64,000 bases of DNA from Clostridia bacterium. Its GTDB lineage: Bacteria; Bacillota; Clostridia; JAAYHZ01. Positions 40,043 to 60,969 of the stretch are shown in pieces. Numbering within the stretch: position 1 is the first letter of the stretch; every line of letters starts with the position of its first letter. Location of the stretch: NCBI GenBank assembly GCA_050950825.1, contig JBMNIH010000004.1, positions 256,001 through 320,000 on the forward strand, in the 5' to 3' direction. The notes under the pieces were generated by a model, which was not told the DNA's origin, searched no databases, and worked only from the letters and a program-made list of their open reading frames with translations. The position numbers and the translations under genes were made by a program.

Positions 40043-40072
40043 GAATATTTTTTACGAATTGTATTCATAATA
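40043..40072 (+). promoter_or_regulatory. sigma-G-type promoter of the spoVA operon
   Basis: GAATA-N18-CATAATA. Confidence 0.7.
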
Positions 40073-40114
40073 AAAGAAGAAAAGATACGCTCTTTCCAAC
40101 AAGGAAGAATCGAG

Positions 40115-40294: not shown

Positions 40295-40721
40295 TGCAAA
40301 GGATTATCAAAAATACGTGGATAAAAAATCCCCGAATTCCAAGCTGGGCTTGAACATGTTAAAGGCTTTCTTAACCGGAGGTCTTATTTGTATGTTAGGA
40401 CAGCTTTTGATGAACTACTTTCAATCCCGCAATCTTGACCAAATGGATTATGCCACATTAACGGCTATGTGCCTTATTTTGCTGAGCGTTATTCTTACCG
40501 CCTTGGATATATATATTTATATAGGAAAGTTCGGCGGTGCGGGAGCCAGCATCCCCATCACCGGGTTCGCAAACGCCATCGTTTCGCCGGCCATGGAATT
40601 CAAAACGGAAGGATATGTATTGGGTGTGGGAGCGAAAATGTTTTTAATTGCAGGTCCGGTATTGGTCTACGGAATATCGTCATCCGTCATACTGGGCATC
40701 CTCTATTATATCTTAAAGTAG
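40278..40721 (+). CDS. spoVAC: Stage V sporulation protein AC
   Basis: AF..GGLIC..GQ, GAGASIPITGFAN, KMF.IAGPV. Confidence 0.95.
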   Translation: MQKLYSAKDYQKYVDKKSPNSKLGLNMLKAFLTGGLICMLGQLLMNYFQSRNLDQMDYATLTAMCLILLSVILTALDIYIYIGKFGGAGASIPITGFANAIVSPAMEFKTEGYVLGVGAKMFLIAGPVLVYGISSSVILGILYYILK

Positions 40722-40733
40722 GGAAGTAGAACT

Positions 40734-41735
40734 ATGCGATTGGGAAAACAAACGGTTACATTCGAAAAAATGCCGTATATCACGGCAACGGCGGCCATTG
40801 TCGGCCCCTACGAAGGAGAAGGGCCTTTGAAGGACGGCTTTGACCGAATCATTGAAAACGACGATAACGGTGAAAAAAGCTGGGAGAAGGCCGAAACGAA
40901 ATTGATGCAGGACACGTACCATCTGCTGCTGCAGAAGGGCAATACGACGGAGAAAAACATCCACTACGTTCTTGCGGGAGATTTGTTGAATCAAAATATC
41001 GCATCAAGCTACGCTTTTCGAGATCGTGAATGCTCCTATTTAGGAATCTACGGTGCTTGCTCCACCTTCGGAGAAGCCGTAGGTATCGCTTCCATGATAA
41101 TGGCGGGAGGCTTTGCGGAGCAAATCATTTGTATCACATCCAGCCATTATTGCTCCGCCGAAAGGCAGTATCGATACCCCTTGGAATTTGCCACCCAAAG
41201 ACCGCCTACGTCCCAATGGACGGTAACCGGCAGCGGAGGGCTCTTGCTTCAAAAGGACGGAACCGGTCCCGTGGTGGAGATGTTTACCGCCGGCAAGATC
41301 GTGGACCAAGGTATAAAAGACGCCAACAACATGGGAGCGGCCATGGCTCCCGCCGCAGCGGATACCATCGCTACCCATTTTGTAGAAACCGGGAGAAAAC
41401 CGGAGGATTACGATTTAATCGTTACGGGTGATTTGGGAGCGGTGGGAACCGATATCTGCCGAGAGCTGCTGAAGCAATACGGCTTTGATGTGTTCGAAAG
41501 GCACGAAGACTGCGGCTTGCTGATGTACGATCGATCGAAGCAGGATGCACACAGCGGGGCAAGCGGCTGCGGATGCTGTGCAACGGTATTTTCGGCGTAT
41601 TTTTATCCGAAGCTTCGAAACGGAGAGCTGACCCGTATTTTATTTGTGCCTACCGGAGCTCTTTTAAGCCCCACCATTGTTCAGCAAGGAGAATCCATTG
41701 CGTGTATCGCCCATGCCGTGGCGATCGCCGGTTAA
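40734..41735 (+). CDS. spoVAD: Stage V sporulation protein AD
   Basis: GDLLNQ, GACST, AERQYRYP, NMGAAMAPAA, SGCGC. Confidence 0.95.
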   Translation: MRLGKQTVTFEKMPYITATAAIVGPYEGEGPLKDGFDRIIENDDNGEKSWEKAETKLMQDTYHLLLQKGNTTEKNIHYVLAGDLLNQNIASSYAFRDRECSYLGIYGACSTFGEAVGIASMIMAGGFAEQIICITSSHYCSAERQYRYPLEFATQRPPTSQWTVTGSGGLLLQKDGTGPVVEMFTAGKIVDQGIKDANNMGAAMAPAAADTIATHFVETGRKPEDYDLIVTGDLGAVGTDICRELLKQYGFDVFERHEDCGLLMYDRSKQDAHSGASGCGCCATVFSAYFYPKLRNGELTRILFVPTGALLSPTIVQQGESIACIAHAVAIAG

Positions 41736-41764
41736 CAACCGACGCCGAAAGGAGAAATCGACTG

Positions 41765-42127
41765 ATGGGAGATAAATTGTTAAATGCATTTTTGGTAGGC
41801 GGCGCCCTTTGCGCCATTGGACAGCTGTTGATTGACAAAACAAAACTGACGTCCGCACGAATCATGGTGATGTATGTTACCTTAGGTGTGTTTTTGGGCG
41901 GACTGGGTATTTATCAAAAGCTGGTGGATATCGGAGGTGCGGGAGCTACCGTTCCCTTGATGGGATTCGGCTACAGCTTGGCGAAAGGAGTTATGAAGGA
42001 AGTGGACCAAAACGGTTTGTTAGGAGCTTTTACCGGCGGCATTAAAGCGACGGCCGGGGGAATCACCGCCGCCATTATTTTCGGATATATTGCTTCTTTG
42101 ATTGCCAAACCCCAAGGAAGGCGATGA
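41765..42127 (+). CDS. spoVAE: Stage V sporulation protein AE
   Basis: AFLVGG.LC.IGQ, GAGATVPL.GFG. Confidence 0.93.
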   Translation: MGDKLLNAFLVGGALCAIGQLLIDKTKLTSARIMVMYVTLGVFLGGLGIYQKLVDIGGAGATVPLMGFGYSLAKGVMKEVDQNGLLGAFTGGIKATAGGITAAIIFGYIASLIAKPQGRR

Positions 42128-42229
42128 TGGGAAAAGACGTCATTGAATAAAGCATGGAACGACGAAGCACGAAAATTTTGTTCGTGCTTGTTTTTTTGTT
42201 CGGATATTTATTCATTTATGGGCGGTTGA

Positions 42230-42258
42230 TTGACACAAAATGCCAAGTAAAGTATGAT
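42230..42258 (+). promoter_or_regulatory. sigma-A promoter at the island's left junction
   Basis: TTGACA-N17-TATGAT directly abutting the addA fragment. Confidence 0.6.
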
Positions 42259-42755
42259 GCAAACCTGAGAGTTTTATATGACAGAGCGAGACAATTTGAG
42301 GAAACCGGCTATAAAGGCCTGTTTAACTTTATTAACTTCGTGGATAAATTAAAAAGCAGCCGGGGTGATATGGGAAGCGCGAAAATACTCGGCGAGAACG
42401 ATAATGTTGTGCGTATAATGAGCATTCATAAAAGCAAAGGCCTTGAGTTTCCTGTTGTTATTCTGGCAGGCTGCGGAAAACGGTTTAATCTTATGGATAT
42501 GAACAGTAGTATTCTTTTGCATCAGGAACCGGGATTCGGTCCTGATGTAGTTGACTGTTCAAAGAGAATCTCGTGGCCGTCTGCCGCGAAGCTTGGCATC
42601 AGAGAGAAGATAAAGACTGAAAATCTGTCGGAGGAGATGCGGATTCTGTATGTCGCAATGACCGGAGCCCGTGAAAAGCTTATAATAACAGGTTCTGTCC
42701 GGAATATAGAAAAGTCGGCTGCCAGGTGGAGCAGAACAGCTTCGGTTCAGGACGA
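42259..42755 (+). pseudogene. addA: Internal fragment of AddA helicase/nuclease subunit
   Basis: [36 protein letters not shown] (motif VI normally TRA); no N-terminal helicase or C-terminal nuclease domain. Confidence 0.88.
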
Positions 42756-43077
42756 TAAAAAGCAATTTGAGAGAATCGAAGAAAAGAGGCCGGCTCTATT
42801 GTTTTCCGGAGAAATGTTGGGGAAATATGTAAACTTAAATGGACAATCCGATATATCTGCAAAGCTACATTTCCAAAAGGGCAACTATGTAAAATCTCCT
42901 GTAAGTTTATTTACTTATTATAGGAACAGTAGGGTTATGGAGTTCAGAGAGTTGAGATGACAGAAGCTGAAAAACCTTTATCTGAATGTAAGATTCCGGA
43001 GAGCATGATAAACATGTGTCACTATTTTATTTTAGCAAGCTTACGTAATAAATAAGTAAATACTCGGAAAGACAGGC

Positions 43078-43950
43078 TCAGGGGGTCCCGTAAAGCTTGT
43101 TTTTATACTCTGTGGGAGACACCCCGGTCTTCTTCCTGAACACACACGAGAAGTGACTAAGACTGCCGAAAGCACATAGATCACAAATCTGCGACATTGT
43201 ACAGTCGGTTTTTATTAACATATCCTTGGCTTTCTCTATTCTCACATTAAGCAAATATTCAAACGGAGTTATCCCTGTATGGCGTTTAAACAGCCTGAGA
43301 AAATGGTAAGGGCTGTAATGCGTTACATTCGCTATCTCAGCAAGGGTTAAATTATTCTGGTAATTATCGGTAATATATTCAATAGCTTTTTTAACAGCCG
43401 CATCATCGTAATAAGTAGCAGACCGAAAAGCTGAACCGGACAGATCGAGGCAACTCTCACGAAGAAGCATAACCGCGACCTGCAGCGCAATGCTTTCCTG
43501 CATCAGGGAAACTCCGGGCAGATCGGCGCTGCATTCCCGTATAAAAATATTCAAAAGCTCCCTCAGTGCAGGTGTTAACGCAAAGCAGCAGTTTTTCAGT
43601 AACGGTTCACTTATGCCGAATAATTCCTCCGCTGTTGATCGGATAAGCGTATTGTCCATATAAACAACCAAAGATTTAAAATCGGTGACTGCCATTTTTT
43701 CACCCCTGTAGGACTGCCCGGGATTACAGGGGAAAATGCTCATTTTCTTCAGAGCGCACCGTTTATTTTGAGTTATAACTACAGGCGCCTGTTTTAACGG
43801 AATCAGGAAGTAGTACTGTCCGCACGAAAATTCATCAAACATTAAATATGAGGTTTCAACTATCACCATTTTATCGCTTGGATATAAATAGGATTTAAGC
43901 ATATGACGGTCTGGAAATGTAGGTTTCAGCACAGATAACATATTTTCCAT
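43078..43950 (-). CDS. AraC family transcriptional regulator
   Basis: SPYHFLRLFK..TG.TP..Y....R...AK..L...F.S.SHF...F.K.TG.SP..Y. Confidence 0.93.
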   Translation of the reverse strand: MENMLSVLKPTFPDRHMLKSYLYPSDKMVIVETSYLMFDEFSCGQYYFLIPLKQAPVVITQNKRCALKKMSIFPCNPGQSYRGEKMAVTDFKSLVVYMDNTLIRSTAEELFGISEPLLKNCCFALTPALRELLNIFIRECSADLPGVSLMQESIALQVAVMLLRESCLDLSGSAFRSATYYDDAAVKKAIEYITDNYQNNLTLAEIANVTHYSPYHFLRLFKRHTGITPFEYLLNVRIEKAKDMLIKTDCTMSQICDLCAFGSLSHFSCVFRKKTGVSPTEYKNKLYGTP

Positions 43951-44360
43951 GATACTACCTCCGACGCAGCTTGCTTTTAAATATATTCTGCATTTGCTGC
44001 AGCCTGCTTTAAATATACCATAAAATACTATCAGTTGTCATTACTCAGCATGTGATTTTGTGGAAAAAACCGGTGATTATTTAAAATTCATTCCTGAAAA
44101 AACAAATAAAGTTCGCAATCATAATAAAACATTTGAGCAACTTTATGAAAATCATTCCATTATAGCTAACGTATAATAATCAGGAAAACATGGGAATGTG
44201 TACGGGAGGCACCCCTATGAAAAACGTACAAATGGCTGATAACGAGGCGGAACAAGTGGCCGGTTTTGTGAAAAAAGCAGGCAGGGCTGCGAATATTCAT
44301 CAATCAGCAGATGCCGGCGAAGGAAATATTCTGCTTCGGCTAAGGATAGGCGGAATATAT

Positions 44361-44903
44361 ATGCCTCGAGCATTAATTCTTATAATGTTGCTTGCAGCAT
44401 TTATGCTTTCAGCCTGCGGGAAAACAGCGTCAAACAATGAAGGCGCGCCTGTTCGTTCGTCAATCATCGAACCCGAGCAGCTCATTTCCAAACAGGAAGC
44501 CGAAGATTTGCTAGGAGAGGCTGTCAAAGACGGCGAAAAGCGCGAACAGCCTGAAGTTGGGCAGAAAATATGCTTCTATGACATGCCATACAGAGATTCG
44601 GCTTATTTTGTTCAGATATCCATTACTCAGGCAGCGCTTATGCCTGCCTCCGGACAGACAGTTGAGGACATTTATAAAACGCTGAAAGAAGCGTTAATCG
44701 AAACGGCGGAGCAAAAAAAGATCGATGGAACAGGAGACGAATACTTCCTCGGAACCCCCGGTCTGCACATATTGAAAGAAGGGTACTATATTTGCATTGC
44801 TGCAGGCAACCTGAATGACGACAGGGTTCTCGGCATACCGGAGCAGGCCGGTGTACCGGCAGTTAATAATTTAGAAAAAATTCTAAGCGAGGTAAGAGAA
44901 TGA
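44361..44903 (+). CDS. Putative lipoprotein
   Basis: Lipobox MLSAC; in-frame alternative upstream start at 44217; stop overlaps the next start (ATGA). Confidence 0.72.
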   Translation: MPRALILIMLLAAFMLSACGKTASNNEGAPVRSSIIEPEQLISKQEAEDLLGEAVKDGEKREQPEVGQKICFYDMPYRDSAYFVQISITQAALMPASGQTVEDIYKTLKEALIETAEQKKIDGTGDEYFLGTPGLHILKEGYYICIAAGNLNDDRVLGIPEQAGVPAVNNLEKILSEVRE

Positions 44904-45340
44904 AAATTATTAAAAGTATTGTAAAATGGATTGGAACACAATTTCAGGTGCATACCGTCTATTCACTGCTTATAACGATAACGGCCGCCGCACTCGTCAC
45001 AGCGGGAATCCTTTGGATTCCCGGATTATTCAAGTCAGCCGAAACATCTGCTTACCTGCCCGATCGCGAGTATATTCTTGCCCCGGTTGAATATAAAGAG
45101 CCTCAAACCCTTGAAGAACTCCTTCACGTCAGGATATCAGAGCCGGATGTGGACACGTTGCTGCGCAATCCGGCGATTGCAGAAGAACTTATGAAAGCTG
45201 AAAAGCTGACTGATGTTGTAGATTCACGGCTTGCTCTGAACAACCTGCGCAACCTTGATCAGCAGCTCGCTGAGCGGATTGAACAGATGCAGAAATCCTT
45301 TGGTAAAAGCAATAAACCTGATGTTACGAACATTGAGCTT

Positions 45341-45529
45341 GCCGGAATGAGCAGTGAGACTGCCGAAACCGGCAATAGGCCTGCCGGGGCGGGCAGTAAA
45401 CCTGCCGGAACAAGCAATGAGGTTGATAGAGTGGGCAGTGAACCTGCCGGAACGAGCAATGAGGTTGCCGGAGTGAGCAGTGACCTTGCCGGAACCGGCG
45501 GAGAGCATGCCGGAACAAACGGTGAGTCT
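45341..45529 (+). repeat. Nine tandem 21-bp (7-aa) coding repeats
   Basis: Units resembling GCCGGAACGAGCAATGAGGTT (AGxSxEx). Confidence 0.85.
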
Positions 45530-48500
45530 TCCAAAGCATCGGCGGATACCATCAGCGCAGCAATAGACAATACGGCGGATCCGGCGAATGCCCCCTCTGC
45601 ACAGGAGGAGCAGATGCTTTCTGTCAAATCGGCAAATGCCCCGGCTGCACCGGCCAATCTGTCCGGTATATCGACCAATCTGCAGGAAATGTCATCATTT
45701 TCCCATGGCATTGCCATACAGGCAACAGGCGAGCTTGCAGTACCGGAAAAGGAGCTGGAACAGCTGAACCAACTCCTTTCAGGGCTGAAAAATGCGACAG
45801 GACGGCTGCTTGAACCAAAGGAGTACAGCGATGACCTTGTGTCAATTCCGTCTGCAATGAATATGAAGGCTATATGGCAATCACCGGACGAGGCGCTTGT
45901 CCATATGACCCCATCGGGAGACTGGATCCCCGAGCAGGGCTACAAGCTTTACAGGAAAGTTGAAGGTCAGGAAGTTCTGATCAACGAGAGTGCTTTGTCG
46001 CCGGTACCCATCCTGTCCGGAGAAATTCAGATTGCCGATGCTGATATGATAAAGGCACTTTACAAGCAAGCGGAGCTGACGCCGGAAAAACTGAAAGTCC
46101 TGGATATGACCGCTGAAGAGTTCAGGGATAAGGCCTACCGCGTTGATTCCCTCACGCCGAAGGAACGCATAGGCGGCAAAGTGGACTTCCTCGCAATGAA
46201 AGAGGCGCTTATTACAGTTCCCGCAAGCATGGAGCAGAAAATTCCCCAAACAGACATTATGTTTGGTTTTCCTATATACATTCAGGATAACATTTCGATT
46301 TATCAACATAATTTCTCTGAATTGAAAATTAATCTTATGCAGAAGTTTTCACTTGTTCATGCTGCGCAGCCGACCGGTATCAGAGGATTTACACAGCTTC
46401 CTGACGGCGCAAAAAAAGTGAAGCTGACCAAAGATATCATGTCAGCCCGGCAGCAGATTTCCACGCTCGCTTTCGTTGATGATGAGTTTGCGGAAAAAGC
46501 CGGATTCTTAGTCCGCGATGATCTCTCAGCGCTTAACCTGTCAAATGGTACGAGGGTTCAGTATATCGTCGAAATGCCTGACGGCAGTCGGTCATTCGTT
46601 AACATTACCCACGGAGAGGAGAAAAACCTTACAAAACCGCAGGAGCTGATGGGTTACGGCATTGACGGTAAGGTGATGCTACGCTGGGATGTGCCGCAGG
46701 ACGAGGAAGAAAGAAGCATTGTAAGCGGTTATCATATTGAGCGCAAGCTCGAAGATGAAACATCGTTTACTAAAATTACGGAGCAGCCCGTTGCAATTTC
46801 TTACATACTTGACGAACACGATATGTATTTTGAGTTGCCGGTATTCTTTGAAGACGAGGTCGAGGACGGCCTTACGGCTGAATACCGTATTTATTCGATT
46901 GATGTATTCGGCCGGAGCAGCGAGTATTCGGATGCTGCCAGCGTAACAGTCTATCGCGTTACGCCACCGAACGCGCCCGTTATAGAGTCACCTGCGTTAT
47001 CGGGCAAACCGGAACCGGTTGTGAATTCGACACAGATGCAAGGTACTTCAGCGAATACCGGTGAGAGTTCGGTCAGTGCAGTTTCCTGGTCAGGTGTTGT
47101 ACATTTGCCCGGGTCAGTCCTTCAGGATGCAATGGAACTGAATAAATATAAACCCGGTATCGTTCTGCCGATTTTTACCGATACGCCCGATACTGTGCGC
47201 TTCACGATATACCGTGCCAAAGCAGTCGGCGCGGAAAGTTTCGGACCTCCGGAGATCCTCGCTGACATCTCCTATGATAACCCGCGTCCGCCGAAGCCTC
47301 AAAGTTTTGTAGACGAAGGCGAAGACGACGAATTTGATGCCGGGCCGTCTCAAATTGAAATGCTGGATACTGCCGCCTCTTCCTCTTCCCAAAAAGAGCT
47401 TAAAAGATCTGAAGACGACGGCGATGGCGGTACTGTTGACAGCCGGCCGGATCAAATGAAAACGCTGAATAAGCCTGCCTCTCCCAAAACAATGCAAAAA
47501 AAGAGCAATAAAGGAATACATGTCGTGTTGGCTGAGTACAGTCCTCACCAACCCGATCTGGTCTATTTTGACTCAGATGTTGAAGAAGGTTGTACATATA
47601 AATACTGGGTCTCGGCCTGGGATAAATGGAATAATGAAAGCGCATGGTCACAATCGGTCACAATGGGCATTCCCACCAAGAAAGAGCCTGAGATTCCGAA
47701 AGAGATTGATATAGCGATGCATGTACGCAGGCTTCCTGATCGCTCGTTTGCCCCTCCCGGGATGCTCGTCAACGGTCCGATCCAATATGCCAAACTCCCG
47801 AACTCCGGCGCAAAGACACTTATGTCCGGTAACATTGAATGGAGCTATGCCGGAGTAGACTTCCCCGACCGGAATTACCCGGACGGGGCTGTCCTCGGCA
47901 CGGTTGAAAATGCTATCGCCGACAAAGCCCGAATAGGAGGATTTTTACTGGATGACCGTGTTCCGGCAGTGATCGATGCGGAGTATGACAACCTGCCTGA
48001 TCGCAAGTATATCCATAAGTTTGTAGGAGTGAAAGGTGAGGATGTGCTGTCCGGCGGCATTGCTGTCCTCAGATGGCCGGCCTATACGGGAGAAGGTCTC
48101 GAAGGCTACGCCGTCTACCGTCCGCTGTTTACCCCGAAAGCCTTGGAGGAAATGCAGCAGATGTCCTACAGTGAGCTCGTGGCTATGGGCAGATGGCAAC
48201 TCGTGAATGATGAGGTAATCAAGCAGAATCAGCTTATGCTGAGCGGGCTTGACGATACACCCGGAAGTCTGTCGCTGTTCCTTGTCTGTACTCGAGCCCG
48301 AAAAAGAGCCGGAGGATACATCCGCTGTATCCGATGATGAAAGCCTCAGCGCGGACCTTCCCGAGGGTGGTCATGTCTTTCTAAGCTGGGATAAACCCGA
48401 CGACCCGCAGGTGCAGTATTACCGCGTCTACCGCAGCGAGGTGCCCTCGTTTAAAGAGCCTGTTGACGAATCAAAGCTCGATTGGACTCTGGTCGGTGAC

Positions 48501-49837
48501 CGCATTGAACACAACCGGTTCACACACCGTGTGGAGCAGAGCTTTGCGCACTATTACTATTACAAAATCACATCGGTGTCCCCATGGGGCGTTGAATCGA
48601 TGGAAGGCCGGATACAGCGCTTCCGCGTACCCGCCACAAAGCCCCCGGATACTCCCAACCTGCTTTTGCCGCTCTCGACGAAGGACGGCGTGAAGATAAA
48701 TTTCTCGGCGGTACGGCATTGCGACCGCTATGAAATATGGCGTACACCGATACCAATACATTCGATGGAGGAAGTCAAAGAATTGGCAAAGACGCATCCG
48801 GAACTGTACGAGGCTCTGTTCGGGTCTCCTGATACGTCTAATGAGGATTTCATCAATAACTATTTTGACACGCTGAGCAAAGAACGCGAATCAGCCCAGT
48901 CGCAGTATGTACCCATGCAGTTCGCCTCCAGGTCCGGCGAGTCTGTACCGATGCAGCTCACCTCAGGCTCACCGGAAGGACTTGGGTTTATGTCAATGCC
49001 GTTTACGGTAGGTCTTTCAAATCAGGAGCCTGCAATGTCAACGGCGGCTAAACCGGGACTATCGAATCCGTCCCGGGTCAGAACGCTAAATCCTGTCGGC
49101 AAATTCAAGACGCTTTCGATTTTCAACATCTCCTCGGTTAAGAGGAATCTCGAAGCTCTCTCCTTGGAGAAGAAACTGAATGTCTATAATATAATTCTCG
49201 ACAAATACGGCCCCCTTGCGATTGCCGATTACTCACAGCTAAGCTGGGAGATGAGCAGGCGGGTTAATTGGGAAAAGATAGGTGAAATTCTCGCTGACTA
49301 CACCACGACCGAAACAGTCGATCCGGCCACCGGGCTTTTAAAGCCGCTGTCGTTCACCGACAAAACCGCGCAGTACGGCGTCCTCTATCTTTATACCGTC
49401 CAGGCATGGAACGACGACAACCTCGGTTCCACGCGGCCTGAGCCGGTGATAGCCACGCCGCGCAGAAATGGTCCGTTTGACCCCATCGACGGTCTAAAAG
49501 GGGAAATTGTCAATGGAGTTCCGACGCTCGTATGGAATACGCCAAAAATGAAAAATGTTTTGCCCGAAAAGTGTCTTGAGGATACGGTAGGTTATATCGT
49601 ATACCGCTCGGACACGAGGGATGGCACATACTATCAGGCAAGCCCGCTGCTCTTCGAGAATAGATGGGTCGACACCGAAGCTGACAGGAACGCCTTCAAC
49701 TGGTATAAGGTCAAAGTTCTTGATACGGGCGGATATCTCTCGGATTTCTCCGAGCCGGTACTCATTCAGCAGACCTTCATAACCGATATGGTGACCGTTA
49801 TTCCCAAGTTTGATCTGCCCGACAACATAGTCATAGC

Positions 49838-50425
49838 GCCGAGAATAAGCTTTGACGGCAGCAATTTTACGGCAGACGAAGGCATGGTGTTTGAAACCTC
49901 ATACAGCCTTTCGGGCACCGATCCAATTACCGTTACTCTTAAGGCTGCTGACAGTAAAGGCGCCGAGGTAGACGGATTTGCGGTGAATGCTGCTTCACGC
50001 AGGGTAACGGCTTCATCAAAACTCGGAGCAGGAACTTATACAGTTACGGTAACGGCAACAAACAGCGCAGGAGAAAGCAAGGCTTCGTTCACACTTACGG
50101 TAAAGCCCAAAATAGTAATTACAGAGCCCAATATAACGGATATACCTCTTGTTGTGAAACCTAAAATCACATTTGACAAAAGCAGCTACAATGCCGTTGA
50201 GGGTACAGCGTTTGAAACCTCATACAACCTTACGGGCACCGAGCCCATTACAGTTACTTTGAAGGCTGTCAACGCCAAAGGCAGCATAATCCGCACCATT
50301 AGGGCGGATGCGGACTCACGGAAGGTAATCGCTCCGTCGACGCTTCCCCCTGATACCTATACAGTGACGGTGACGGCAAAAAACAGTGCCGGAGAAAGCT
50401 CAGCTTCGTTTATGCTAACGGTAGT
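49838..50425 (+). repeat. Tandem duplicated Ig/cadherin-like domain
   Basis: P.I.FD...EG..FETSY.L.GT.PITVTLKA...TYTVTVTA.NSAGES.ASF.LTV occurs twice; a more divergent third copy follows. Confidence 0.85.
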
Positions 50426-53400
50426 GCCATCGGGTGAGCCCCCGAAGCTTTCCGAACGCGATGACGGTTACCGGTTTAAGATGTACCTGGCACTATTCGG
50501 ATCGAATGATTTCACGGTACAGTTCTCCGCGTCGGGTACCGAGCCCCTCGAATGGTCGCTTGAGCCTTATAAGGAAATAAGTATTCCTGATGAGATAACG
50601 ATAAACGACAGGGGGCTTTTAACTGTTAAAAACACTGTAAAAAAGGGTACTTACCGGTTTGTTGTAAAAGTCGGCAACAAATTCGGATCAGATGAAAAGA
50701 CCGTTTTTCCGGATGTTATGCCCCTGCTTCAACCGGATGTCACGAAGAAGCCGGATAACTCGATTATACCGAGGGATTCTCTTCCACCGATTGTCACGGT
50801 CGCATCCACGCCCACGCCCGGCCCGTTTATAATAAAGTCTATAGGCTTTCTCGACACAGTTTCGGTAAGCGGTGCGGGTACCGTGCATACAAACGGAAAC
50901 ATCAATGCGGCGTCAGAACTCCCACAGGTTGAAATATTCGATTATACGAGTAACTATGTGAAATGCATGAGCTTTACTCTGAGCGATGTGAAGCTGAATG
51001 GCGGGCAAAACGCTTATTACGGCACGGCAATGCTGAATCTCGGCGGAGCAACCGTACCGGTATATATTATACGGGCCGGTATCTCACATCTAGGCGGAGA
51101 GGATATCATGACCGATGGCTCTGTTTTTATCGAACAGCCTTTCGAACTATCGGCTGTCGGCCTGACGCTCGTATCTCTCGACATCTCGCCTCATGCAAAT
51201 TATGCGAAGGTCTCCGGATATATAAAAAGCACGGTCACGGGCAGCAACCTTGCCGGTGATTTATATTCGCTAAAATTTGAAGATGCGAACCTTACCCCGG
51301 GTACAATCACAATAAGTAAAAATCTGCCCGATATTCGCTACAGGCAGTTAAAAATATACAATATAAAAACCATTGTTATAAACCTTAATGCCGCACAACA
51401 ACAGGGAAAGGATTTGCTCTCGCTGCAGGAACCTGACGTTGCTATGAAATTCCACCTCGAAACGCTCAGCAACGAAGGACTGGAGTTTGAGACAGACAAT
51501 TCGCTTTCATTTGATACACAGGGCAGGCTTAGCGGTCGCATTTTTACGAATAAAGAACAATTCCTGCAACTGCTCGTACCGGGCGGTGCAGGACTTAGGG
51601 CAGGCGCTGCCGAGCTTGAGATTGCCGACGGAGAGTTTAAATCAAACGGCAAGCTTATAGGCAAGCTCGTGATACCGTTTGAAAAGACAACCACACAGGG
51701 TCCTCTTGTACCGGCTATTTATGCGGGCGCGCATCCGGCGCACAGCGAGCTGGACGACCTGGCGTCCGGCAGCGGAGTTCTTTCGCAGGAGCATCAGGAT
51801 GCGCTGAATAATTCGCTCGTACACTATGGTCAAAAGGTGCAGCAAAACAGTCTCCTTATCCTGCCTAAATCCTTTGAGCTGCAGGATAAATGCGCATCGG
51901 CCTCTATCTACCTCGTTGACTGGAGCGGAGAGGGTTTTGTGATTAAATCGGCGACCATGGATAATGTAAGGGTGACCAACCGAAACTTATCCGGTATAGA
52001 TAAGCTGGGCGATTTTGAGGTGGGTGACTATTATCAGCGCGAACAGGCTCTTATCCTCAGTGGGGGCAGCGATAAGCTCGGATATGATGTGTCCATAGAT
52101 CTCAGCCGGGAAGATAGTCTGCCGAAAACGGGAAATACGCAGGGTCAAAACAATGATACGGAGATATTGACTCCGAAGGAAACCGAAAAACCATTTTGGG
52201 TAGGCATTGTTGTCGGGAAAGCAGAATTGGAGCTGCCGTCGAAATATCTCCGGCAGGCCGACGGCAGTATTATTCGGTTCAACCTGGCAGAGGGCGAAAT
52301 GCTCTATGACCTTAACGGATTCAACTACCAGACCTATCTGTACGGCAGCGACCCGGAGGGTGTGCCGGCACAGTTCGGGGATAACCTGGGCGGTTTTAAG
52401 GATGTTCGTATCAAGGACTGTCTGCTCGACCTTTATGCCAACACAGTCAATCTCGAAATAAACGCGACGGTCAGGGTTGAAATCCTTCAGAACGAAAAGA
52501 TGGAAGCTAAACTCTACACCGACAAAAGCGGAGAATTCATCTGCTCGGTGGCGCCAACGAATGTTGCGCTGGCAAAGGGCATCAATATGAAAATAGCCGG
52601 GGGTTTTTTTGAAAAAGAAGGGATGCGTATAAGCGGCGAGATGATGCTGCCTGCTGAAGGATTCGATGCAGTCACGAAAGACCCGCCGGGCTTCACTGAT
52701 CTGACCATTCCAAGCAGTCTTGACGCGGTAACGCCTGGAATTGCTGCAAAAAGCGCAGCCGCCGTTGTGCTTGACAAGCCGGTGAACATCAACTTTAAAG
52801 GTTTCCCGATGGAGGTGCGCGAATTTGAGCTGAGATACAGGAAAAAACCGGCTGCTGTTTTTCAGTTTCCGGGAGATACGAAGAGATACGATTCGATACA
52901 AATAACGCTGCGAGGCGCCACACGGCTTTCCGATAATATTGCGCTCTCACGCGATACGACTGACTCTCTTGCAATAAAATGCAGCTTTGCGGACCGTGGT
53001 GCTCCTCCGGACGCGATGCCGGAACCGGTTTTGCTGTATGAAGAATCCAAATCCGAGCTTAACACATCCTTTGACGGCTGCATCGACATTACGGCAAAGA
53101 AGCTAATCCCGAAGAAATTGCCGCAAGGCAGCCAAACGGGAGGCCTTGTGGAGTTTGAAACAGACGGGCTCGACCTGAATTTCCTCGGTCAAAGCCTTAA
53201 GAGCCTGCCGGTAACAGCTAAAACCCGATTCGGCAAGCAGCCGGACGGCAAATTCTATTACGCTGTCGGGCTGACGCCTCAAAATGGGCAACCCATCAAT
53301 TTCGGCGCCGGTGATGTGGATAACTTTACGGGACTGGTTGCGTATAATATGGCTGTTGGCACCGATGAACAGGGAAGGTACCGGTTCCCTGACAATCCCG

Positions 53401-54569
53401 GCCAGATGAGTGCATACATTGATAATCTGGCGGTAGGCGGCGGTAAATTTGTGGGCGGTATCAAGGGTGAGATGAATGTCACCGGCCTGTGTAAAATCAA
53501 AAACCTGTATTTCGGCTTTGAGTCCGGACCATCAGTCAGGGCAGAGGGTGACCTGTACCTGCCGCTCAGCATAAGGTCCATCGTTGAGGGACAGCCTGAT
53601 AAATTCATGGGCAAGGCATCCATCTGTTACCGACACCAGGATCGCTACCTCTCTTTCAGCATGACCCTTGAAAGAATAAATGTAGTTTTGGCCGAACTCG
53701 GCGGAAGTCTGGGCTTTGAATACAGCCCCAGCCTGTTTGGGGTTTACCTTGGCTATCCCGAGACGCTTGCAGGCAATATTGGCATATTCCATGTCGGAGC
53801 CGGAGTAGGATTCCGTTACGATTGGGATGAGGAAGCAGGCATGATTCAGGCCAAGATTGAATTCGGCCTTGAAAAGAACCTGAATATTGCTATTGTTTAT
53901 CTCAGAGGCTATCTCTATGCAGGTGCCGATGGGGCATATTACTGGAGCCATGACGGCAGCAGTATTACGCTGACGCTCTATCTGAAGGGAGGCATTGAAG
54001 GCGGTGTCAAGATCGGAGGTAAACGGTTCAAGGTTATAGGCTTTTATCTGGATGCCCAGGGTACTTTGGTATCAAGTCCGGGATTTGACAAATGGAATCT
54101 CGCATGTTCTGCAACCGTTGCTTACAGCGTCGATGTATTCCTGTTCGAGGTCGAAGGCTCGGTCACTGCCGATTTCGCAACTACAATAGGCTGACGCCAG
54201 GCGTATCGATATTGCAGACTGTCTGTTCAGATGTGTAATGAAGAACTATTGTACGATAACGGAAACAAAAGCTTCATTTGCGAAGTATATATAATTTCCT
54301 AATATTGTACAGTAGTTTTTCACATGTATAGTACTGCTCATGTGGATTCATAACGCTCATTTCCTAATATAACCTTATTTTGAATGAGTTTTTACTCTTT
54401 ATTATATCTGATATACTAGCCAAACCCTCAATTTTTCAGTATAGGAAGCGCAGGAAGTCCACCCGGTACAGCGTATAATTTTCCGAACGATGATTTCCAG
54501 TCTTTTTATCCAGGGATTGAGTAACGGTTGCAATGCAATATTTTTTTGACTCCCCTTAACAAAAAAATC

Positions 54570-54733
54570 CGGGTAAATTTTACAAGTAAAGGCTTACGGG
54601 GATTCTACCTGTTATCAGGAAAATGCATATGTTGGTATTCAAAAATGAATTGACGTATAAATTCGTCAATTTGGGTGGTACCGCAGAAGCTATGGCTTTT
54701 GTCCCATATTTTGATGGGATGAAGGCTTTTTTA
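54570..54733 (+). promoter_or_regulatory. Orphan T-box riboswitch (3' part)
   Basis: AGTA, CCTGTTATCAGG, stem III AATTGACG/CGTCAATT, T-box GGGTGGTACCGC (54673-54684), terminator TTTTGTCCCAT/ATGGGATGAA + T-run. Confidence 0.8.
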
Positions 54734-54786
54734 TACATTTTTTTGTTATACCGAAAACGCCAAAGGTGAGTGACATTAGTACATCG

Positions 54787-56220
54787 CCGGCGTATGATAG
54801 CCGAAATGGACGAAGGCCGAATCGGCACGATTATTGTAAAAGACATGTCGAGGCCGGGGCGAGATTATCTGAAGGTCGGCTATTACACCGAAGTCGCATT
54901 CCCCGATGCCGATGTGCGCTTCATTGCCGTCAACAACGGCGTGGACAGCGCAAACCAGCAGAAAAGTGATTTTACTCCTTTTTTGAACATCATAAACGAA
55001 TGGTATGCTAAGGATACGAGCAAGAAAATACGCGCTGTGTTTAAAGCTAAGGGAGAGTCCGGTAAGCCACTCTGCACCAATCCGCCCTACGGATACATAA
55101 AAGACCCGGAGGACAAAATGCGCTGGATAGTGGACGAAAAAGCCGCTGAGGTGGTCAGGGTGTTTTTCAAAATGTATATGGAGGGCTTCGGACCCACGCA
55201 GATAGCGAAAACCTTGAGAAGAATCAAATTGAAACACCGACGGTTCACCTGAACAGTATGGGCATTAAGACTCCCGCCAAGCAGACGGAAACGCCTTATG
55301 CATGGTCAGCGCGTACGGTAGCAGACATTCTCGCAAAAGTCGAGTATCCGGGACACACGGTGAATTTCAAGACTCGCAAAAAATCTTACAAGAGCAAGGA
55401 GAAGATTTGGAACAATCCCGAAGACTGGATGGTGTTTGAAAACACACATGAAGCCATCATCGACGAACATGTCTGGGAAACCGTCCGGAAAATACGAGAT
55501 GGTAAACGCAGACCATCTCGCATGGGTGAAATGGGTGTATTCTCCGGCATGATGTTCTGTGCGGACTGCGGGGCGAAGCTGTATCAGGTCAGAGCCAATG
55601 GCCGGACGCATGACAAGGAATACTTCGTCTGTGCTACCTATCGCAAAAAGAAGGGTCTGTGCAGTTCGCACCAAATACGCAATGTGATAATTGAGGAACC
55701 GGTACTTGATTATTTGCAGCAGATCATAACCTTTGTGAAGGAACACGAGCGAGATTTCATCACAGCCGCCATGAAAAGTTCAGAAAGGCGGATTACTGAA
55801 GACCTGCGCATGGCACAGAAGGAATATGAGCAGGGACAGGTGAGAATTTCCACACCGGATAAAATCCTGAGGAAACTGTATGAAGACCGTGTAATGGAGA
55901 GAATTTCGGAGGAACGTTACTATAAAATATCATCGGACTATGAAGCCGAACAGAGAAGCCTCGTGGAGAGAGCCACGGTATTGAAACAGACGCTAGATGC
56001 CGCAAAGGAGGAGAATCTGAACATCGACCGTTTTCTCAAAATCGTACGCAAGTACACGGAAATTACAGAGTTAAGTGCTGAAATTATTCGGGACTTCATC
56101 GAGAAGATAATCGTGTATAAGGCTGAAAAGGTAGATGGTGTTCGAACCCCGCGAATTCGAATCATTTACAATTGCATCGGAGCAATAGATTTTCCGAAAA
56201 TGGACGAAAAAACGGCATAG
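54787..56220 (+). pseudogene. Large serine recombinase (TnpX/DUF4368 type), 5'-truncated and frameshifted
   Basis: KDMSR(P)GR, PPYGY, HEAIID, CADCG Zn ribbon, C-terminal IRIIYNCIG; catalytic YxRxS N-terminus absent; frameshift near 55218. Confidence 0.9.
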
Positions 56221-56285
56221 CCGCTATTCACGACTATGCCGGAACTTTTCAGGGATATAAAATCCCTATGTGAGGACAGCTTTCC

Positions 56286-57545
56286 ATGTCTTTTTATCTT
56301 TCCTCGCTTAACGGTCTTGAAAAAGAAATCATTCGGGAGCTTGAAAAGCTCTACATTTACGATTGTCACGAGCATCTGCCGCCGGAAAAAGGGCGCCTTA
56401 AACAAAAGCCCGACGCCTTTACGCTGTTTTCCCACTACTGCCAACACGAGCTCTACACCGGAGGAATGGACAAAGAAATCATGGCCAAAATCCTTTGGCA
56501 GCCGGGCGATATCGATTGGAAGTGGAAAACCTTCGAACCTTTTTACAAGCAAATGAAGCACACGAGCTATTGCCGAGCGGCTCATATCACCATGGAAAAG
56601 TACTACGGCGAAAAAGAGCTGACCGCGAAAAACGTACATGCCGTCAGTGAACGTATACAAAAAGCCAATACGCAAGGTCTTTACGACTGCGTACTTCGAG
56701 AAGACTGCAAAATCATCGCTTCCATTAACTGCGACGGTCCCTTAGACGATACCCATTCGGGATTGATTCGCCAAACCGTAAGAGCCATCGACTATATTTA
56801 CTCCTACAAGGACGTTTTGAAAAAGTTTGGCGACGGCGAAACGTCTATCGATTCCGTGGACGATATATTAAAAGCGTGCGAAGGCTACATCGTAAATGTC
56901 AAAGAAAAAGGTGCCGTCGGCGTTAAATACATGTCCTTCTACATCGATGGGGCGACAAGAGAAGATGCGCAAAACACCCTTAAAAGGCTTAAGAACGATC
57001 CTTCTTTGGTTTTACCTCGAAGAAATCCTTTGAATGAATTCGTTTTGACGTCCCGGCTTCGCATGACGCATGATAAGGGTCTTGTCAACTGCATGCATAC
57101 CGGCTATCGGAACGATTATCGGGAGCTTTCTCCCGCCAATCTACTCCCCTTTATCATGAAAAACCAAGACGTGAAAATCGACATCTACCACGCAGGCTAC
57201 CCTTACGTAAGAGAAGCCATTATGCTAGGCAAGGTTTGGCCGAATATTCGAATGAATATGTGCCGGACCTACTTGATCAGCCAACGATTTGCATTCGACG
57301 CTTTGGACGAAATGCTCGAAATGCTGCCGGATAACAAGATCATCGGTTTCGGCGGTGACTATTATGTCGTGGAAAAGGTATTCGGGCATCTTGTTATGGC
57401 CAGAGAAACCATTGCTCGCGTTCTTGCGAAGAAAATACAAGACGGGTACTTGTCTTTAGATAGAGCCTTGGAAATCGGAAGAAAAATGCTGTACGACAAT
57501 CCGAAGGAATTTTACGGATTCAAAGACGTGGGTTTCAACGTGTAA
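56286..57545 (+). CDS. Amidohydrolase family protein
   Basis: DCHEHL (HxH), HTG, HAGYPY, GFGGD; possibly decaying (candidate W->R changes). Confidence 0.8.
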   Translation: MSFYLSSLNGLEKEIIRELEKLYIYDCHEHLPPEKGRLKQKPDAFTLFSHYCQHELYTGGMDKEIMAKILWQPGDIDWKWKTFEPFYKQMKHTSYCRAAHITMEKYYGEKELTAKNVHAVSERIQKANTQGLYDCVLREDCKIIASINCDGPLDDTHSGLIRQTVRAIDYIYSYKDVLKKFGDGETSIDSVDDILKACEGYIVNVKEKGAVGVKYMSFYIDGATREDAQNTLKRLKNDPSLVLPRRNPLNEFVLTSRLRMTHDKGLVNCMHTGYRNDYRELSPANLLPFIMKNQDVKIDIYHAGYPYVREAIMLGKVWPNIRMNMCRTYLISQRFAFDALDEMLEMLPDNKIIGFGGDYYVVEKVFGHLVMARETIARVLAKKIQDGYLSLDRALEIGRKMLYDNPKEFYGFKDVGFNV

Positions 57546-57596
57546 ATCCTTTTCTTGTGATATAATTTGTTCAAATGAAAAGAACGGAGAGATACA

Positions 57597-58430
57597 ATGA
57601 GCAAAGCGGATCGAATCTTCATTGATATGTGTCAAGATATTTTAGAAAACGGGTACAGCTCCATAGGGGAGAAGGTGCGCCCCGTATGGACGGACACCGG
57701 GGAGCCGGCCCATACCCTAAAAAAGTTCGGCGTTGTGAATCGCTATGATTTATCCGAAGAATTCCCGATTCTGACTTTACGTCCTACTCGATTGGACAAG
57801 GCCGTAGACGAGCTTCTGTGGATCTGGCAGAAAAAATCCAATAACGTGAAGGATTTAAACAGCCGGATATGGGATGCGTGGGCGGATGAAAACGGATCCA
57901 TCGGAAAAGCATACGGATACCAATTGGGTATCAAGCACAAGTACAAGGAAGGGGAATTCGACCAAGTGGACCGGGTTCTTTACGATTTGAAGCACAATAA
58001 ATACAGCAGAAGAATCATTGTAAACATGTACAATCATGCGGACCTTCATGAAATGAACCTTTATCCTTGCGCATACTCCGTCACCTTTAACGTGACGGGA
58101 AATCGCTTAAACGCCATTTTGAACCAGCGGTCGCAAGACATCTTGGTAGCGAACAACTGGAATGTATGCCAGTATGCCGTATTGGTCCACATGTTCGCCC
58201 AAGTCAGCGATCTTGAGCCGGGAGAATTGGTTCATGTAATTGCCGATGCCCATATTTACGATCGGCATATCCCCATCATCGAAGAATTGATCAAGCGTCC
58301 CGTTTACGATGCGCCTCGGTTTGAGATCAACAAGGATATCAAGGATTTTTATCAATTCAAGCCGGAGGATTTTAAATTGATTGACTACAAAGCCGGTGTT
58401 CAAATTAAAAACATTCCGGTAGCGGTATAG
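57597..58430 (+). CDS. thyA: Thymidylate synthase
   Basis: ELLW, YGYQ, SRR, LYPC, QRSQD, N..QY, DAHIY. Confidence 0.96.
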   Translation: MSKADRIFIDMCQDILENGYSSIGEKVRPVWTDTGEPAHTLKKFGVVNRYDLSEEFPILTLRPTRLDKAVDELLWIWQKKSNNVKDLNSRIWDAWADENGSIGKAYGYQLGIKHKYKEGEFDQVDRVLYDLKHNKYSRRIIVNMYNHADLHEMNLYPCAYSVTFNVTGNRLNAILNQRSQDILVANNWNVCQYAVLVHMFAQVSDLEPGELVHVIADAHIYDRHIPIIEELIKRPVYDAPRFEINKDIKDFYQFKPEDFKLIDYKAGVQIKNIPVAV

Positions 58431-58446
58431 GCAAAGGAGGTATGAA

Positions 58447-60969
58447 ATGGGCGACCTTTTTGTAACAAGCGATCGGAAGGCATTGGACTACCCTTATTTC
58501 CCCGATAAATTCATCGCCGTCATATGGCGAAATTGGGAAACGGTGCCCGTTGAAAACATTGCCAAGGCCTTGGATACTACGGTTGGTAATATCGTGGAAA
58601 CGGCAGGTCTCATGGGATTGGATACCAAGGCTTCTCCGAATCCTTCTTTTTTGAAAAGAGGGTATCTTACCGTCATTCGCAGGAACTGGCACCTTTTGGA
58701 TTACGATCAAATCTGCACCCTTTTGGATATAACAAAAGACGAATTGTTTTTTATTTTAAAAGAAGACGATTTTATGTGGCATAAAATGGGCAACATGAAA
58801 CCGAATACCGGTCATACGGTTTATCGGCCGCTGACGGAAGAAGAAAAGGTAATTTTACGAAAAAACGCATACGTATTGGCCGAAATTCACGGGGAGCGGT
58901 ATAAGGAAAATGCGTTTTCCTTTTTAGAGCCCTATTACGCCTATGACATGACTCCCATTGAAAAAGGCGACGGGAAGGGATTTGAAATTGTTTTGCCGGA
59001 TACCGTCGGATATATTTACCCCGAAGACAATCCTTGGATCGACCTTTATGTGAAGGACTTTTGCCGCTTGATGGAAAAGAGAATGGGAATCAAGGCGAAG
59101 CTTCACGAAAGTGCAGACTTTACCGTACATATTGCAATAAAGGACTTCGCTTCAAAAAAGAGCGGAAGTTATCGAATGGATATTTCCTCGTCCTCGATAC
59201 GAATCGAGTGCAAGGATGAAAAAGCCGTTTATCGGGCATTATTGGAGCTTGACAAGAAATTTCGTTCCGGTAAGGGGCCTTACCTTCATCCGGAAACAAT
59301 CGAAAAGAATACGGTATTTGATATTCGGTACATCTATTCCTACTTCGCCCTCTACGGCGATGCTCTTTTAGATCCTTCGTTGGATCCTTACCCGGAAGGA
59401 CTTTTGCGAAGGCTTTCCGAATGCGGTGTAAACGGCATATGGATGCAGGGTATTTTGTATCAATTGACGCCTTTTCCCTTTGAGCCTTCTCTTTCAAAGG
59501 GCTATGAAAAAAGAAGGGAATCCCTAAAGCGCTTGGTGGAAAAGGCGAAGCGGTTCGGCATCGACATTTATATGTACTTTAACGAACCGAGAGCCATGAG
59601 CGATGCTTTTTACCGAAAATATCCCGAGCTGCGGGGAACGAGAGAAGGAGACTTTTATGCCCTTTGTACCTCCGATGACAGGGTAAAAGAATATTTGTAT
59701 AGCGGAATGAAGGATCTTTTTTCCGATATTCCGGATTTGGCCGGGTTCTTTACCATAACCATGTCGGAAAATCTGACCAACTGTTATTCTCGTTTGGGAC
59801 GGCGTGAGCAAGAATGTCCCCGCTGCAAGCTAAGAAAACCGGAAGAGGTTGTTGCGGAAGTAAACAATTTAATGGCGCGGGGCGCCAAAGCGGGAAATCC
59901 CGATGCAAAAGCCATAGCATGGACTTGGGGATGGAACCCTTCTTGGACGGAAAACGTCATTCGGTCGTTGGATGAAGGCATTATGCTGATGTGCGTCAAT
60001 GAAGAGGGAATGGAATTGGATATCGCAGGGTATCATCCGGTCGTTATCGACTATACCATGACGGTACCGGGTCCTTCCCAAAGAGCGATAAACAATTGGA
60101 CGATCGCCAAGCAAACCGGCAGAAAAACGCTGTCAAAGGTACAGCTGAACTGTACGTGGGAGCTTTCCGCACTGCCCTTTTTACCTTTAGCCCAAATATG
60201 CGATGAAAGAATTCGAAACATCAAAAAACAAGGCGTGGAAGGCTTGATGCTCAGTTGGACATTAGGCGGATGCGACTCCCAAAACCTTGATATCGCCTCT
60301 CTTTATTACGAGGAACCGACGGAAGAAAATCCTTTGGAAAGGTATATGGAAAAAACTTACGAGAATACCGCCCAAAGAGTGATGAAAGCACAAGAAATCT
60401 TTAGCGAAGCCATGAGGATGTTTCCTTTCCATTTAACCGTTTTGTACACCGCTCCGCAGAATTATGCACCGGCGGCGCCTTTTTATGAATACAAAACCGG
60501 ATATACCGCCAGTATGATCGGTTTTCCTCATGACGATTTACAAACATGGAAAGCCATCTACAGTGAAGAGGATTTTCAAAAGCAATTTCATAAGCTGGTA
60601 TCGAAATGGAAAGAGGGAGTGAATCTTTTGGAAGAGGCAACGGAAGTTCGCAACTCCAAGTTCGCCGAGCTGCTGCGTATGGCCAAAGGCGCTTATTACC
60701 ATTTCAAAAGCACTTTGAATCATATTCGGTTTGTTATGGAGAGAAATAAATTGCTTTCGGATACCTTAACAATGGAAGAACAGATCCAAGCGAAAAAGAC
60801 GATTCGGTCGATTTTAGATGACGAAACCGAAACGGTTTTGAATGTATTAAAAATCCGTTCGGAGGATTCGAGAATCGGGTTTGAAGCAAGCAACCACTAC
60901 TTCTATACGGTACAGGATTTGAAAGAAAAAATCATCAATTTGCACTACTTGAAAGAATATTATGCATAA
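58447..60969 (+). CDS. Uncharacterised putative glycoside hydrolase (GH20-like domain + TIM barrel)
   Basis: Y.M.I....I.I......A.YRAL hexosaminidase-like segment; GVNGIW, YFNEP, SENLTNC, W.WGW. Confidence 0.55.
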   Translation: MGDLFVTSDRKALDYPYFPDKFIAVIWRNWETVPVENIAKALDTTVGNIVETAGLMGLDTKASPNPSFLKRGYLTVIRRNWHLLDYDQICTLLDITKDELFFILKEDDFMWHKMGNMKPNTGHTVYRPLTEEEKVILRKNAYVLAEIHGERYKENAFSFLEPYYAYDMTPIEKGDGKGFEIVLPDTVGYIYPEDNPWIDLYVKDFCRLMEKRMGIKAKLHESADFTVHIAIKDFASKKSGSYRMDISSSSIRIECKDEKAVYRALLELDKKFRSGKGPYLHPETIEKNTVFDIRYIYSYFALYGDALLDPSLDPYPEGLLRRLSECGVNGIWMQGILYQLTPFPFEPSLSKGYEKRRESLKRLVEKAKRFGIDIYMYFNEPRAMSDAFYRKYPELRGTREGDFYALCTSDDRVKEYLYSGMKDLFSDIPDLAGFFTITMSENLTNCYSRLGRREQECPRCKLRKPEEVVAEVNNLMARGAKAGNPDAKAIAWTWGWNPSWTENVIRSLDEGIMLMCVNEEGMELDIAGYHPVVIDYTMTVPGPSQRAINNWTIAKQTGRKTLSKVQLNCTWELSALPFLPLAQICDERIRNIKKQGVEGLMLSWTLGGCDSQNLDIASLYYEEPTEENPLERYMEKTYENTAQRVMKAQEIFSEAMRMFPFHLTVLYTAPQNYAPAAPFYEYKTGYTASMIGFPHDDLQTWKAIYSEEDFQKQFHKLVSKWKEGVNLLEEATEVRNSKFAELLRMAKGAYYHFKSTLNHIRFVMERNKLLSDTLTMEEQIQAKKTIRSILDDETETVLNVLKIRSEDSRIGFEASNHYFYTVQDLKEKIINLHYLKEYYA

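Follow-up and report, generated by a model that had tools for sequence, protein, structure and literature searches.

A directional T>C (A>G) process has rewritten CTGG and CCAG as CCGG in the genome of a Clostridia bacterium (GCA_050950825.1), both genome-wide and in genes under relaxed selection. The assembly, referred to here as G000, comprises 3.55 Mb and is 97% complete. Attention was drawn to it by a 64,000-nt stretch of contig JBMNIH010000004.1 (forward-strand positions 256,001-320,000; hereafter the window, whose numbering is used below). A sequence-only reading of this window had noted that many motif-breaking substitutions fall on CCGG, each of them reversible by a single CCGG>CTGG or CCGG>CCAG change, and had proposed that an HpaII-like C5-methylase, together with the repair nuclease Vsr, drives T>C changes in this context and rapidly pseudogenises incoming DNA. 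Our analysis supports the drive and identifies an intact methylase of the HpaII family. No gene for Vsr was found, and the share of damage due to CCGG had been overstated.

Relative to zero-order expectations, CCGG is found at 2.60x and CTGG/CCAG at 0.39x in the whole genome, in line with the earlier impression that CCGG looks common in the host. The CCGG/CTGG ratio, 5.23, is the highest of the 16 NCGN/NTGN contexts. A 132-kb sample of intergenic-like DNA is the most extreme compartment, with CCGG at 4.40x and CTGG/CCAG at 0.21x. Coding sites were counted in a crude set of 2460 long open reading frames (ORFs) covering 82% of the genome. At synonymous positions, NCC:NCT codons number 8509:128 before GG versus 24120:4241 before G[ACT], and CCG:CCA before G are in the ratio 7615:106, so that 98.5-99% of synonymous target sites are converted.

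The reading frame determines which target words survive. Sense-strand CTGG persists 3605 times as a Leu codon (CTG|G) and 1428 times as C|TGG before Trp, compared with 128 times in the synonymous frame; for CCAG, the synonymous frame retains 106 and the other two frames 923 and 971. CTG makes up 14% of Leu codons before G versus 15-22% before other bases. Codon selection is argued against because CTGG has been lost where T>C is synonymous and kept in the Leu frame. Avoidance of the word itself is argued against since an avoided CTGG could have escaped through five other Leu codons. The 3605 retained Leu-frame sites are likewise hard to reconcile with a blind basecalling error. The directional T>C drive postulated in the sequence-only reading is thereby borne out at synonymous and intergenic sites as well as in relaxed genes.

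The share of C over T at codon position 3 delimits the site. It reaches 0.99 in C_GG, 0.86-0.92 in [AGT]_GG, 0.89 in C_GA and C_GT and 0.72 in C_GC, most remaining contexts lying between 0.23 and 0.8. This matrix is that of a four-base site tolerating one outer mismatch; the Vsr site of E. coli also tolerates one outer mismatch. Two further features of word usage were observed in G000: C is favoured over T at codon position 3 before AG (0.72-0.85), and TAG-containing words are strongly avoided, CTAG being the rarest tetramer (0.084x expectation).

The window shows what the process does to proteins. CCGG is present at all 13 positions that had been named, and protein alignments show the reconstructed ancestral residue (Leu, Gln, Trp or Arg) in homologs at 13/13; homologs do not already carry Pro, Arg or Gly there.

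Six of these positions lie in a large serine recombinase gene on the forward strand (54770-56220). Its first piece (54770-55252) lacks its 5' part and retains only the end of the resolvase domain (Pfam Resolvase positions 53-144 of 145); its second piece (55258-56220), in another frame, matches Pfam Recombinase, Zn_ribbon_recom and DUF4368. According to Pfam, no single frame of 54770-56220 combines a complete catalytic resolvase domain with the recombinase and zinc-ribbon domains. Relatives about 96% identical have one extra A after 55207, at the site of the window's frameshift. The gene is judged to be a recombinase pseudogene because Resolvase is matched only from position 53, the domains are spread over two frames and the relatives carry the extra A.

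We aligned the recombinase with the best 60 of 120 listed homologs (6747 hits; best identity 59%). It contains ten CCGG sites. Four are Leu>Pro changes: 54854, in the motif SRLGR (Leu in 41/60 homologs), 55348 (51/60), 55699 (35/60) and 55855 (57/60). The others named are Gln>Arg at 55485 (Gln in 49/60) and Trp>Arg at 55602 (Trp in 30/60, Phe in 18/60). A seventh site, 54787, is ambiguous, being possibly Gln>Arg (Gln in 39/60), and the remaining three (55059, 55106 and 55544) code for conserved Ser-Gly or Pro-Glu. In columns with a Leu consensus, Pro is encoded in every case by CCG with a G after it; CTG survives there before A, C or T and never before G. CTGG/CCAG remains unconverted at four sites (54955, 55123, 55425 and 55473). 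At a strict threshold (at least 70% consensus), 23 derived mismatches were counted in 244 columns, of which only two are CCGG Leu>Pro. CCGG changes are therefore a strongly enriched minority of the motif-breaking substitutions in the recombinase and not their majority: the enrichment that had been noticed is real and its share was put too high.

Nucleotide comparisons give the polarity. The stretch is present in 20 listed metagenome runs from 17 studies, mostly bioreactor and digester metagenomes, and contigs of four runs were compared with window positions 40001-60000. The recombinase relatives in four runs have T or A at 54855, 55349, 55487, 55603, 55700 and 55856. Of the 40 differences with the best support, 6 fall at CCGG sites, on 20 of the 1434 positions (binomial p=1.9e-5), and no difference in the reverse direction was found at the four remaining CTGG/CCAG sites. 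In these four runs the six sites are covered by the relatives' contigs only, so the window's own C/G calls there stand without an independent copy. Outside CCGG, CpG-versus-TpG differences are balanced (5 vs 5). Relatives from run X11 differ from the window at 51 positions in about 1370 nt; hence 6/10 target sites have been converted at about 3.7% overall divergence. We also observed that the relatives (window 54675-56675) reach 25-500x depth in four bioreactor or digester metagenomes, compared with 5-8x for the host, which suggests that those communities share an abundant mobile element.

Upstream lies an addA fragment (42154-42960, forward strand; Pfam UvrD_C), the C-terminal part of a UvrD-like helicase. 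The fragment is foreign, sharing 72-77% identity with AddA proteins from other families and only 45% with the one that the host itself encodes. Among 29 aligned homologs, six of them close, Leu>Pro at 42529 replaces a residue found in 6/6 close homologs and 16/29 overall, and Arg>Gly at 42662 (CCAG>CCGG) destroys the Arg of motif TRA, present in 29/29. A Ser>Gly change at 42305 (CCAG>CCGG; Ser in 6/6 close homologs) had not been listed before. One CTGG (42463) and one CCAG (42722) are left unconverted in the fragment.

A lipoprotein-like ORF (44190-44903, forward strand; 53 homologs aligned) carries three CCGG-creating changes: Leu>Pro at 44838 (Leu in 49/53), Leu>Pro at 44856 (Leu in 18/53, Lys in 14/53) and Ser>Gly at 44314-44316, the Gly codon lying on CCGG. 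Its relative P0292, 96% identical, retains Leu at 44838 and 44856 and Ser at 44314-44316. The contig of run X18 covering 44258-47072 is identical to the window in this region. Next is a giant Ig/PKD-repeat surface-protein gene (44900-54194, forward strand; window ORFs 44900-48337 and 48249-54194), whose homologs are single proteins of about 2700-3300 aa. Against 34 aligned homologs, Leu>Pro on CCGG was found at 50709 (Leu in 32/34) and 52686 (27/34), and an Arg on CCGG at 52250 is probably a Gln>Arg change (Gln in 23/34). The gene also varies between strains. One letter at 48288 is missing from the contigs of all four runs, so the frameshift that splits the gene there is either strain-specific or an assembly error; a 6-letter insertion follows 47289 in runs X12 and X11, and 14 letters are deleted at 49855 in run X13.

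The amidohydrolase ORF (Amidohydro_2; 56286-57545, forward strand; 38 homologs aligned) is intact. Residue 327 (CCGG at 57263) is Arg in place of a Trp found in 38/38 homologs, and residue 257 (CCGG at 57053; Gln in 16/38) is possibly a Gln>Arg change. Covering contigs of runs X18 and X13 show 0 differences in this gene, and because two other runs are identical we take Trp327Arg to be fixed in the species. Although the frame is open, the enzyme itself may no longer work. Other-run contigs with 0 differences from the window cover the sites in addA, lipoprotein and amidohydrolase as well as giant-gene site 52686; giant-gene site 50709 lies on a contig with five differences and one gap. Rapid pseudogenisation of incoming DNA, as had been proposed, agrees with the 6/10 recombinase sites converted at about 3.7% divergence. 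It agrees less with the fact that several affected genes, the lipoprotein and amidohydrolase among them, are intact ORFs and not evident pseudogenes. We read such pseudogenisation as a by-product, no defence role having been shown.

We then considered which enzymes could act at CCGG. The sole C5-methylase match in G000 (PF00145, 329.5 bits; C10:25427-26398) is full length and without stops. It is solitary, its neighbours being genes for a GNAT acetyltransferase and a BNR-repeat protein. Homologs 68-79% identical to it are encoded at 80 retrieved loci from many phyla, with the usual gene order Vsr, M.HpaII-type methylase, R.HpaII-family nuclease (Vsr-M-R). Vsr occurs in the flanks of 63 of these loci (full length in 60), an R.HpaII homolog (alignment of at least 150 aa) in 69, and both are full in 53; PF09561 (RE_HpaII) is the directly downstream gene in 6/6 methylase loci scanned with Pfam. 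The G000 methylase can be assigned to the HpaII family, with its specificity taken from gene association, because 69/80 homolog loci carry R.HpaII and PF09561 lies downstream in 6/6. The methylase half of the earlier proposal thus stands, by association.

An intact R.HpaII nuclease (PF09561) was not found in G000; the only match covers profile positions 320-359 of 359 (C4:37452-37571). This remnant, the last 40-54 residues of the protein (C4:~37452-37574), lies away from the methylase and adjoins a 1392-bp IS256-like insertion sequence (IS) in the C4:36064-37574 region, outside the window. The element, evidently active in the recent past, has at least seven copies in G000 at 99.6-100% identity, and the copy adjoining the remnant is 100% identical to other copies. 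The junction is likely the scar of an IS-mediated deletion of a restriction-modification cassette. At metagenome loci of the anti-sigma-like protein encoded downstream of the remnant, no cassette genes were found, only two distant loci (68% and 56% identity) being available.

Taken together, these results make it probable that this lineage has for a long time experienced biased repair of the very-short-patch (VSP) type at HpaII sites, and that the enzyme was recently lost or lies in unassembled DNA. An HpaII-type C5-methylase would mark CCGG, the inner C presumably being the methylated base. A T:G-mismatch nuclease of the Vsr kind would cut the T strand at CTGG/CCGG mismatches, and C:G would be restored. 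To such an enzyme, a mismatch left by deamination of 5-methylcytosine would look the same as one arising through a replication error or in a recombination heteroduplex; genuine T:A pairs would therefore be converted too, turning CTGG and CCAG into CCGG. In neutral places (synonymous sites, intergenic DNA and dead genes), conversion would become nearly complete. The resulting Leu>Pro, Trp>Arg, Gln>Arg, Ser>Gly and Arg>Gly changes would be held back by purifying selection in needed genes, and would pile up in relaxed or foreign genes, damaging those genes quickly. The agent would be, or have been, a Vsr-family enzyme, its gene having been lost very recently with the rest of the Vsr-M-R cassette or lying in unassembled DNA. 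In E. coli, Vsr can provoke CTAGG>CCAGG mutations, analogous to CTGG>CCGG, and loss of vsr turns 5-methylcytosines into C>T hot spots (PMC2715241).

Other genomes, sampled at 20-210 kb each and including kin that are not independent, support an association of the bias with the cassette. The family consists of three species genomes (G000, G001 and G002), all with the methylase (79% and 61% identity in the two relatives), each in a different neighbourhood. A solitary vsr is present in G002 and a Vsr-M-R cassette in G013. Overall, no strong excess of CCGG over CTGG is seen in the flanks of the 80 methylase loci (a ratio of 1.3 for those with both Vsr and R); because these flanks are probably island DNA, five of the genomes concerned were sampled elsewhere. 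Where Vsr and a full-length methylase homolog (at least 45% identity) co-occur, the share of C at C_GG is at least 0.87 in 6/8 sampled genomes (G002, G013, G014, G041, G044 and G045; below it are G042 at 0.68 and G043 at 0.13). Without Vsr, the same level is reached in 3/16 (G012, G016 and G037). In three further genomes, G021, G024 and G017 (L198-L199, L194-L195 and L178-L179), the opposite pattern was seen: CCGG is strongly avoided, down to 0.11x in G021, a pattern that restriction at CCGG would be expected to produce where no T>C drive operates.

Several observations weigh against a Vsr-based drive. Vsr was not detected in the 97%-complete G000 assembly with Pfam PF03852, nor by tblastn with seven Vsr proteins, nor with a custom hidden Markov model of 62 Vsr sequences run on six-frame ORFs of at least 40 aa (best E=1.5), and none was found in the sister species G001. 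The Vsr part of the original proposal therefore finds no gene in the assembly. The bias is nonetheless present in both vsr-less genomes: C at C_GG is 0.99 in G000 and 0.96 in G001, against 0.98 in G002. It is broader in G000 than in either relative, with 0.89 at C_GA/GT versus 0.45 and 0.52 in G001 and G002. G043 has the full cassette and no bias, one clear exception. Conversely, G012, a genome of another family rated 100% complete (loci L172 and L173), has CTGG at 0.30x and NCC:NCT before GG of 45:0 without PF00145 or PF03852, and NCC is preferred over NCT before GG without the genes in G003 (0.80), G005 (0.77) and G016 (0.93). Because several genomes without the genes still favour NCC before GG, the association is imperfect; the link between the bias and the Vsr-methylase cassette is real but loose. 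A further point comes from repeats: the 51 singleton differences in 11 G000 repeat families include two CCGG>CTGG changes and, with 58 target positions available, no CTGG>CCGG change. On the other side, a T>C in cTgt is all that separates two copies of one IS family, and comparison with an outgroup copy of that family shows another site to have changed from CTGG to CCGG; two more such sites are unpolarised. Evidence from repeat copies on a current drive is mixed and its numbers are tiny.

Other places and proteins were inspected for the repair function. At the position syntenic to the G002 vsr, beside the ortholog at C4:446321-447478 (upstream thrS and a spacer of about 500 bp), there is no trace of Vsr. 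G000 has no DUF559 match. Its three HhH-GPD proteins, tried as T:G repair candidates, look like ordinary enzymes, which by eye we take to be Nth, MutY and an OGG-like protein.

The strongest competitor is the same T:G-to-C:G drive run by a nuclease or glycosylase outside the Vsr family that acts on mismatches in partnership with the solitary HpaII-type methylase; we regard this as unlikely. G000 and G001 keep the solitary methylase and the bias without a Vsr match, the G000 fingerprint is broader than that of vsr-bearing G002, and G012 is biased without Vsr or a C5-methylase. Moreover, an active methylase without T:G repair should erode CCGG fast, yet synonymous sites stand almost completely converted. 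No candidate emerged, however, from the HhH-GPD proteins, the DUF559 search or the GNAT and BNR-repeat neighbours of the methylase; the R.HpaII remnant beside a very young IS readily accounts for how a cassette vsr could have been lost not long ago, and both assemblies (G000 and G001) are incomplete (97%). There is accordingly a small chance that non-Vsr T:G repair with the solitary methylase keeps about 21,000 CCGG sites and fixes Leu>Pro and Trp>Arg even in intact genes.

Less probable again is a fossil bias, in which VSP repair has ceased and C>T changes at methylated CCGG have begun to undo its effect. The lack of vsr in the assembly fits this, as do the two CCGG>CTGG singletons in young repeat copies with none in the other direction, and the 100% identity of the IS at the R.HpaII remnant means that the loss could be very recent. 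These singletons are very few, however, the IS copies also show T>C in cTgt and the outgroup-polarised CTGG>CCGG, and no relaxation is visible at synonymous sites. Such a fossil differs from the Vsr-type repair bias favoured here only in timing and is largely compatible with it.

Selection, whether as a codon-pair or translational preference, through CCGG as a functional motif or through avoidance of CTGG/CCAG as a nuclease target, is very improbable. Context-dependent codon choice is known in many genomes, and several relatives without the genes favour NCC over NCT before GG. Yet the bias peaks in intergenic-like DNA, Leu-frame CTG shows no depletion before G even though five synonymous escapes are open to it, conserved residues have been destroyed (the amidohydrolase Trp and the helicase motif Arg), and the changes accumulate in a frameshifted, truncated recombinase pseudogene. 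A sequencing or assembly artefact at methylated motifs is the least credible explanation: the one-base difference at 48288 makes some assembly errors possible and the six recombinase calls lack independent contigs, but a blind CTGG>CCGG error would have removed the Leu-frame and Trp-frame CTGG still present, other-run contigs agree with the window at the addA, lipoprotein and amidohydrolase sites and at giant-gene site 52686, CTGG itself is no target of methylation, and the bias recurs in the separately assembled G001, G002 and G013.

The favoured Vsr-type repair bias belongs to a known class of mechanism. As in E. coli Dcm/Vsr, a C5-methylase target is involved, the T:G deamination product is repaired to C:G, and T>C arises as a side effect at look-alike sites; in both, the product word is over-represented, the substrate word is depleted and one outer base may deviate. 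The effect of Dcm/Vsr repair on oligonucleotide abundance was reportedly described by Bhagwat and McClelland and by Merkl and colleagues in 1992, and by Glasner and colleagues in 1995. In G000, where synonymous sites are 98.5-99% converted and CCGG reaches 4.4x in intergenic DNA, the effect is far stronger than is known for E. coli. Unlike E. coli, where the site is CCWGG, G000 uses CCGG (CTGG>CCGG), visibly changes protein sequences and has no vsr gene that we could find. Analogies also exist with GC-biased gene conversion and repeat-induced point mutation, which also run in a fixed direction, can drive slightly deleterious alleles to fixation and hasten the decay of DNA that is not under selection. 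The process in G000 differs from these in being four-base-specific, in its prokaryotic repair origin and in not being aimed at repeats or foreign DNA as such.

HpaII loci are also close to the system. The Vsr-M-R order at most loci of close G000-methylase homologs is like the HpaII system of Haemophilus parainfluenzae, whose original locus is said to have a vsr-like ORF, a report attributed to Kulakauskas and colleagues in 1994. In G000, by contrast, only the methylase is intact, the R.HpaII remnant lies elsewhere and Vsr was not found. In Caulobacter crescentus, the solitary C5-methylase ScmA acts on YGCCGGCR, and a Vsr-like protein is expressed (PMC12907096). The G000 methylase resembles ScmA in being solitary and probably in having a CCGG-containing motif. 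The ScmA motif is longer, however, and the stated theme of that paper is fitness and the DNA-damage response and not a genome-wide compositional drive (PMC12907096); in addition, the Vsr partner expressed in Caulobacter was not found in G000. Our literature search, with most subscription journals and supplements outside it, found no published CTGG>CCGG drive or extreme Vsr-linked CCGG excess in Firmicutes. New here are the word, the strength of the effect, its visible cost to proteins, down to the invariant Trp of the intact amidohydrolase, and the lack of the nuclease gene that one would expect.

The enzyme usually travels in a mobile HpaII-type cassette, of a kind found across phyla, and the hosts of such cassettes may therefore be left with long-lived compositional footprints. 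Footprints of this kind affect tetranucleotide-based binning, estimates of the amelioration of foreign DNA and the dating of pseudogenes. The missing vsr makes this organism well suited to the search for a very recent cassette loss or for a new T:G repair enzyme. G000 provides an unusually clean and strong natural example of a repair enzyme acting as a fixed-direction mutator, with a four-base word rewritten throughout the genome. Codon choice at thousands of sites follows the repair bias and not translation, and protein changes are predictable (Leu>Pro, Trp>Arg, Gln>Arg, Ser>Gly and Arg>Gly). For the organism, incoming DNA rich in CTGG/CCAG decays faster than average, as illustrated by the recombinase, with 6/10 sites converted at <4% divergence.

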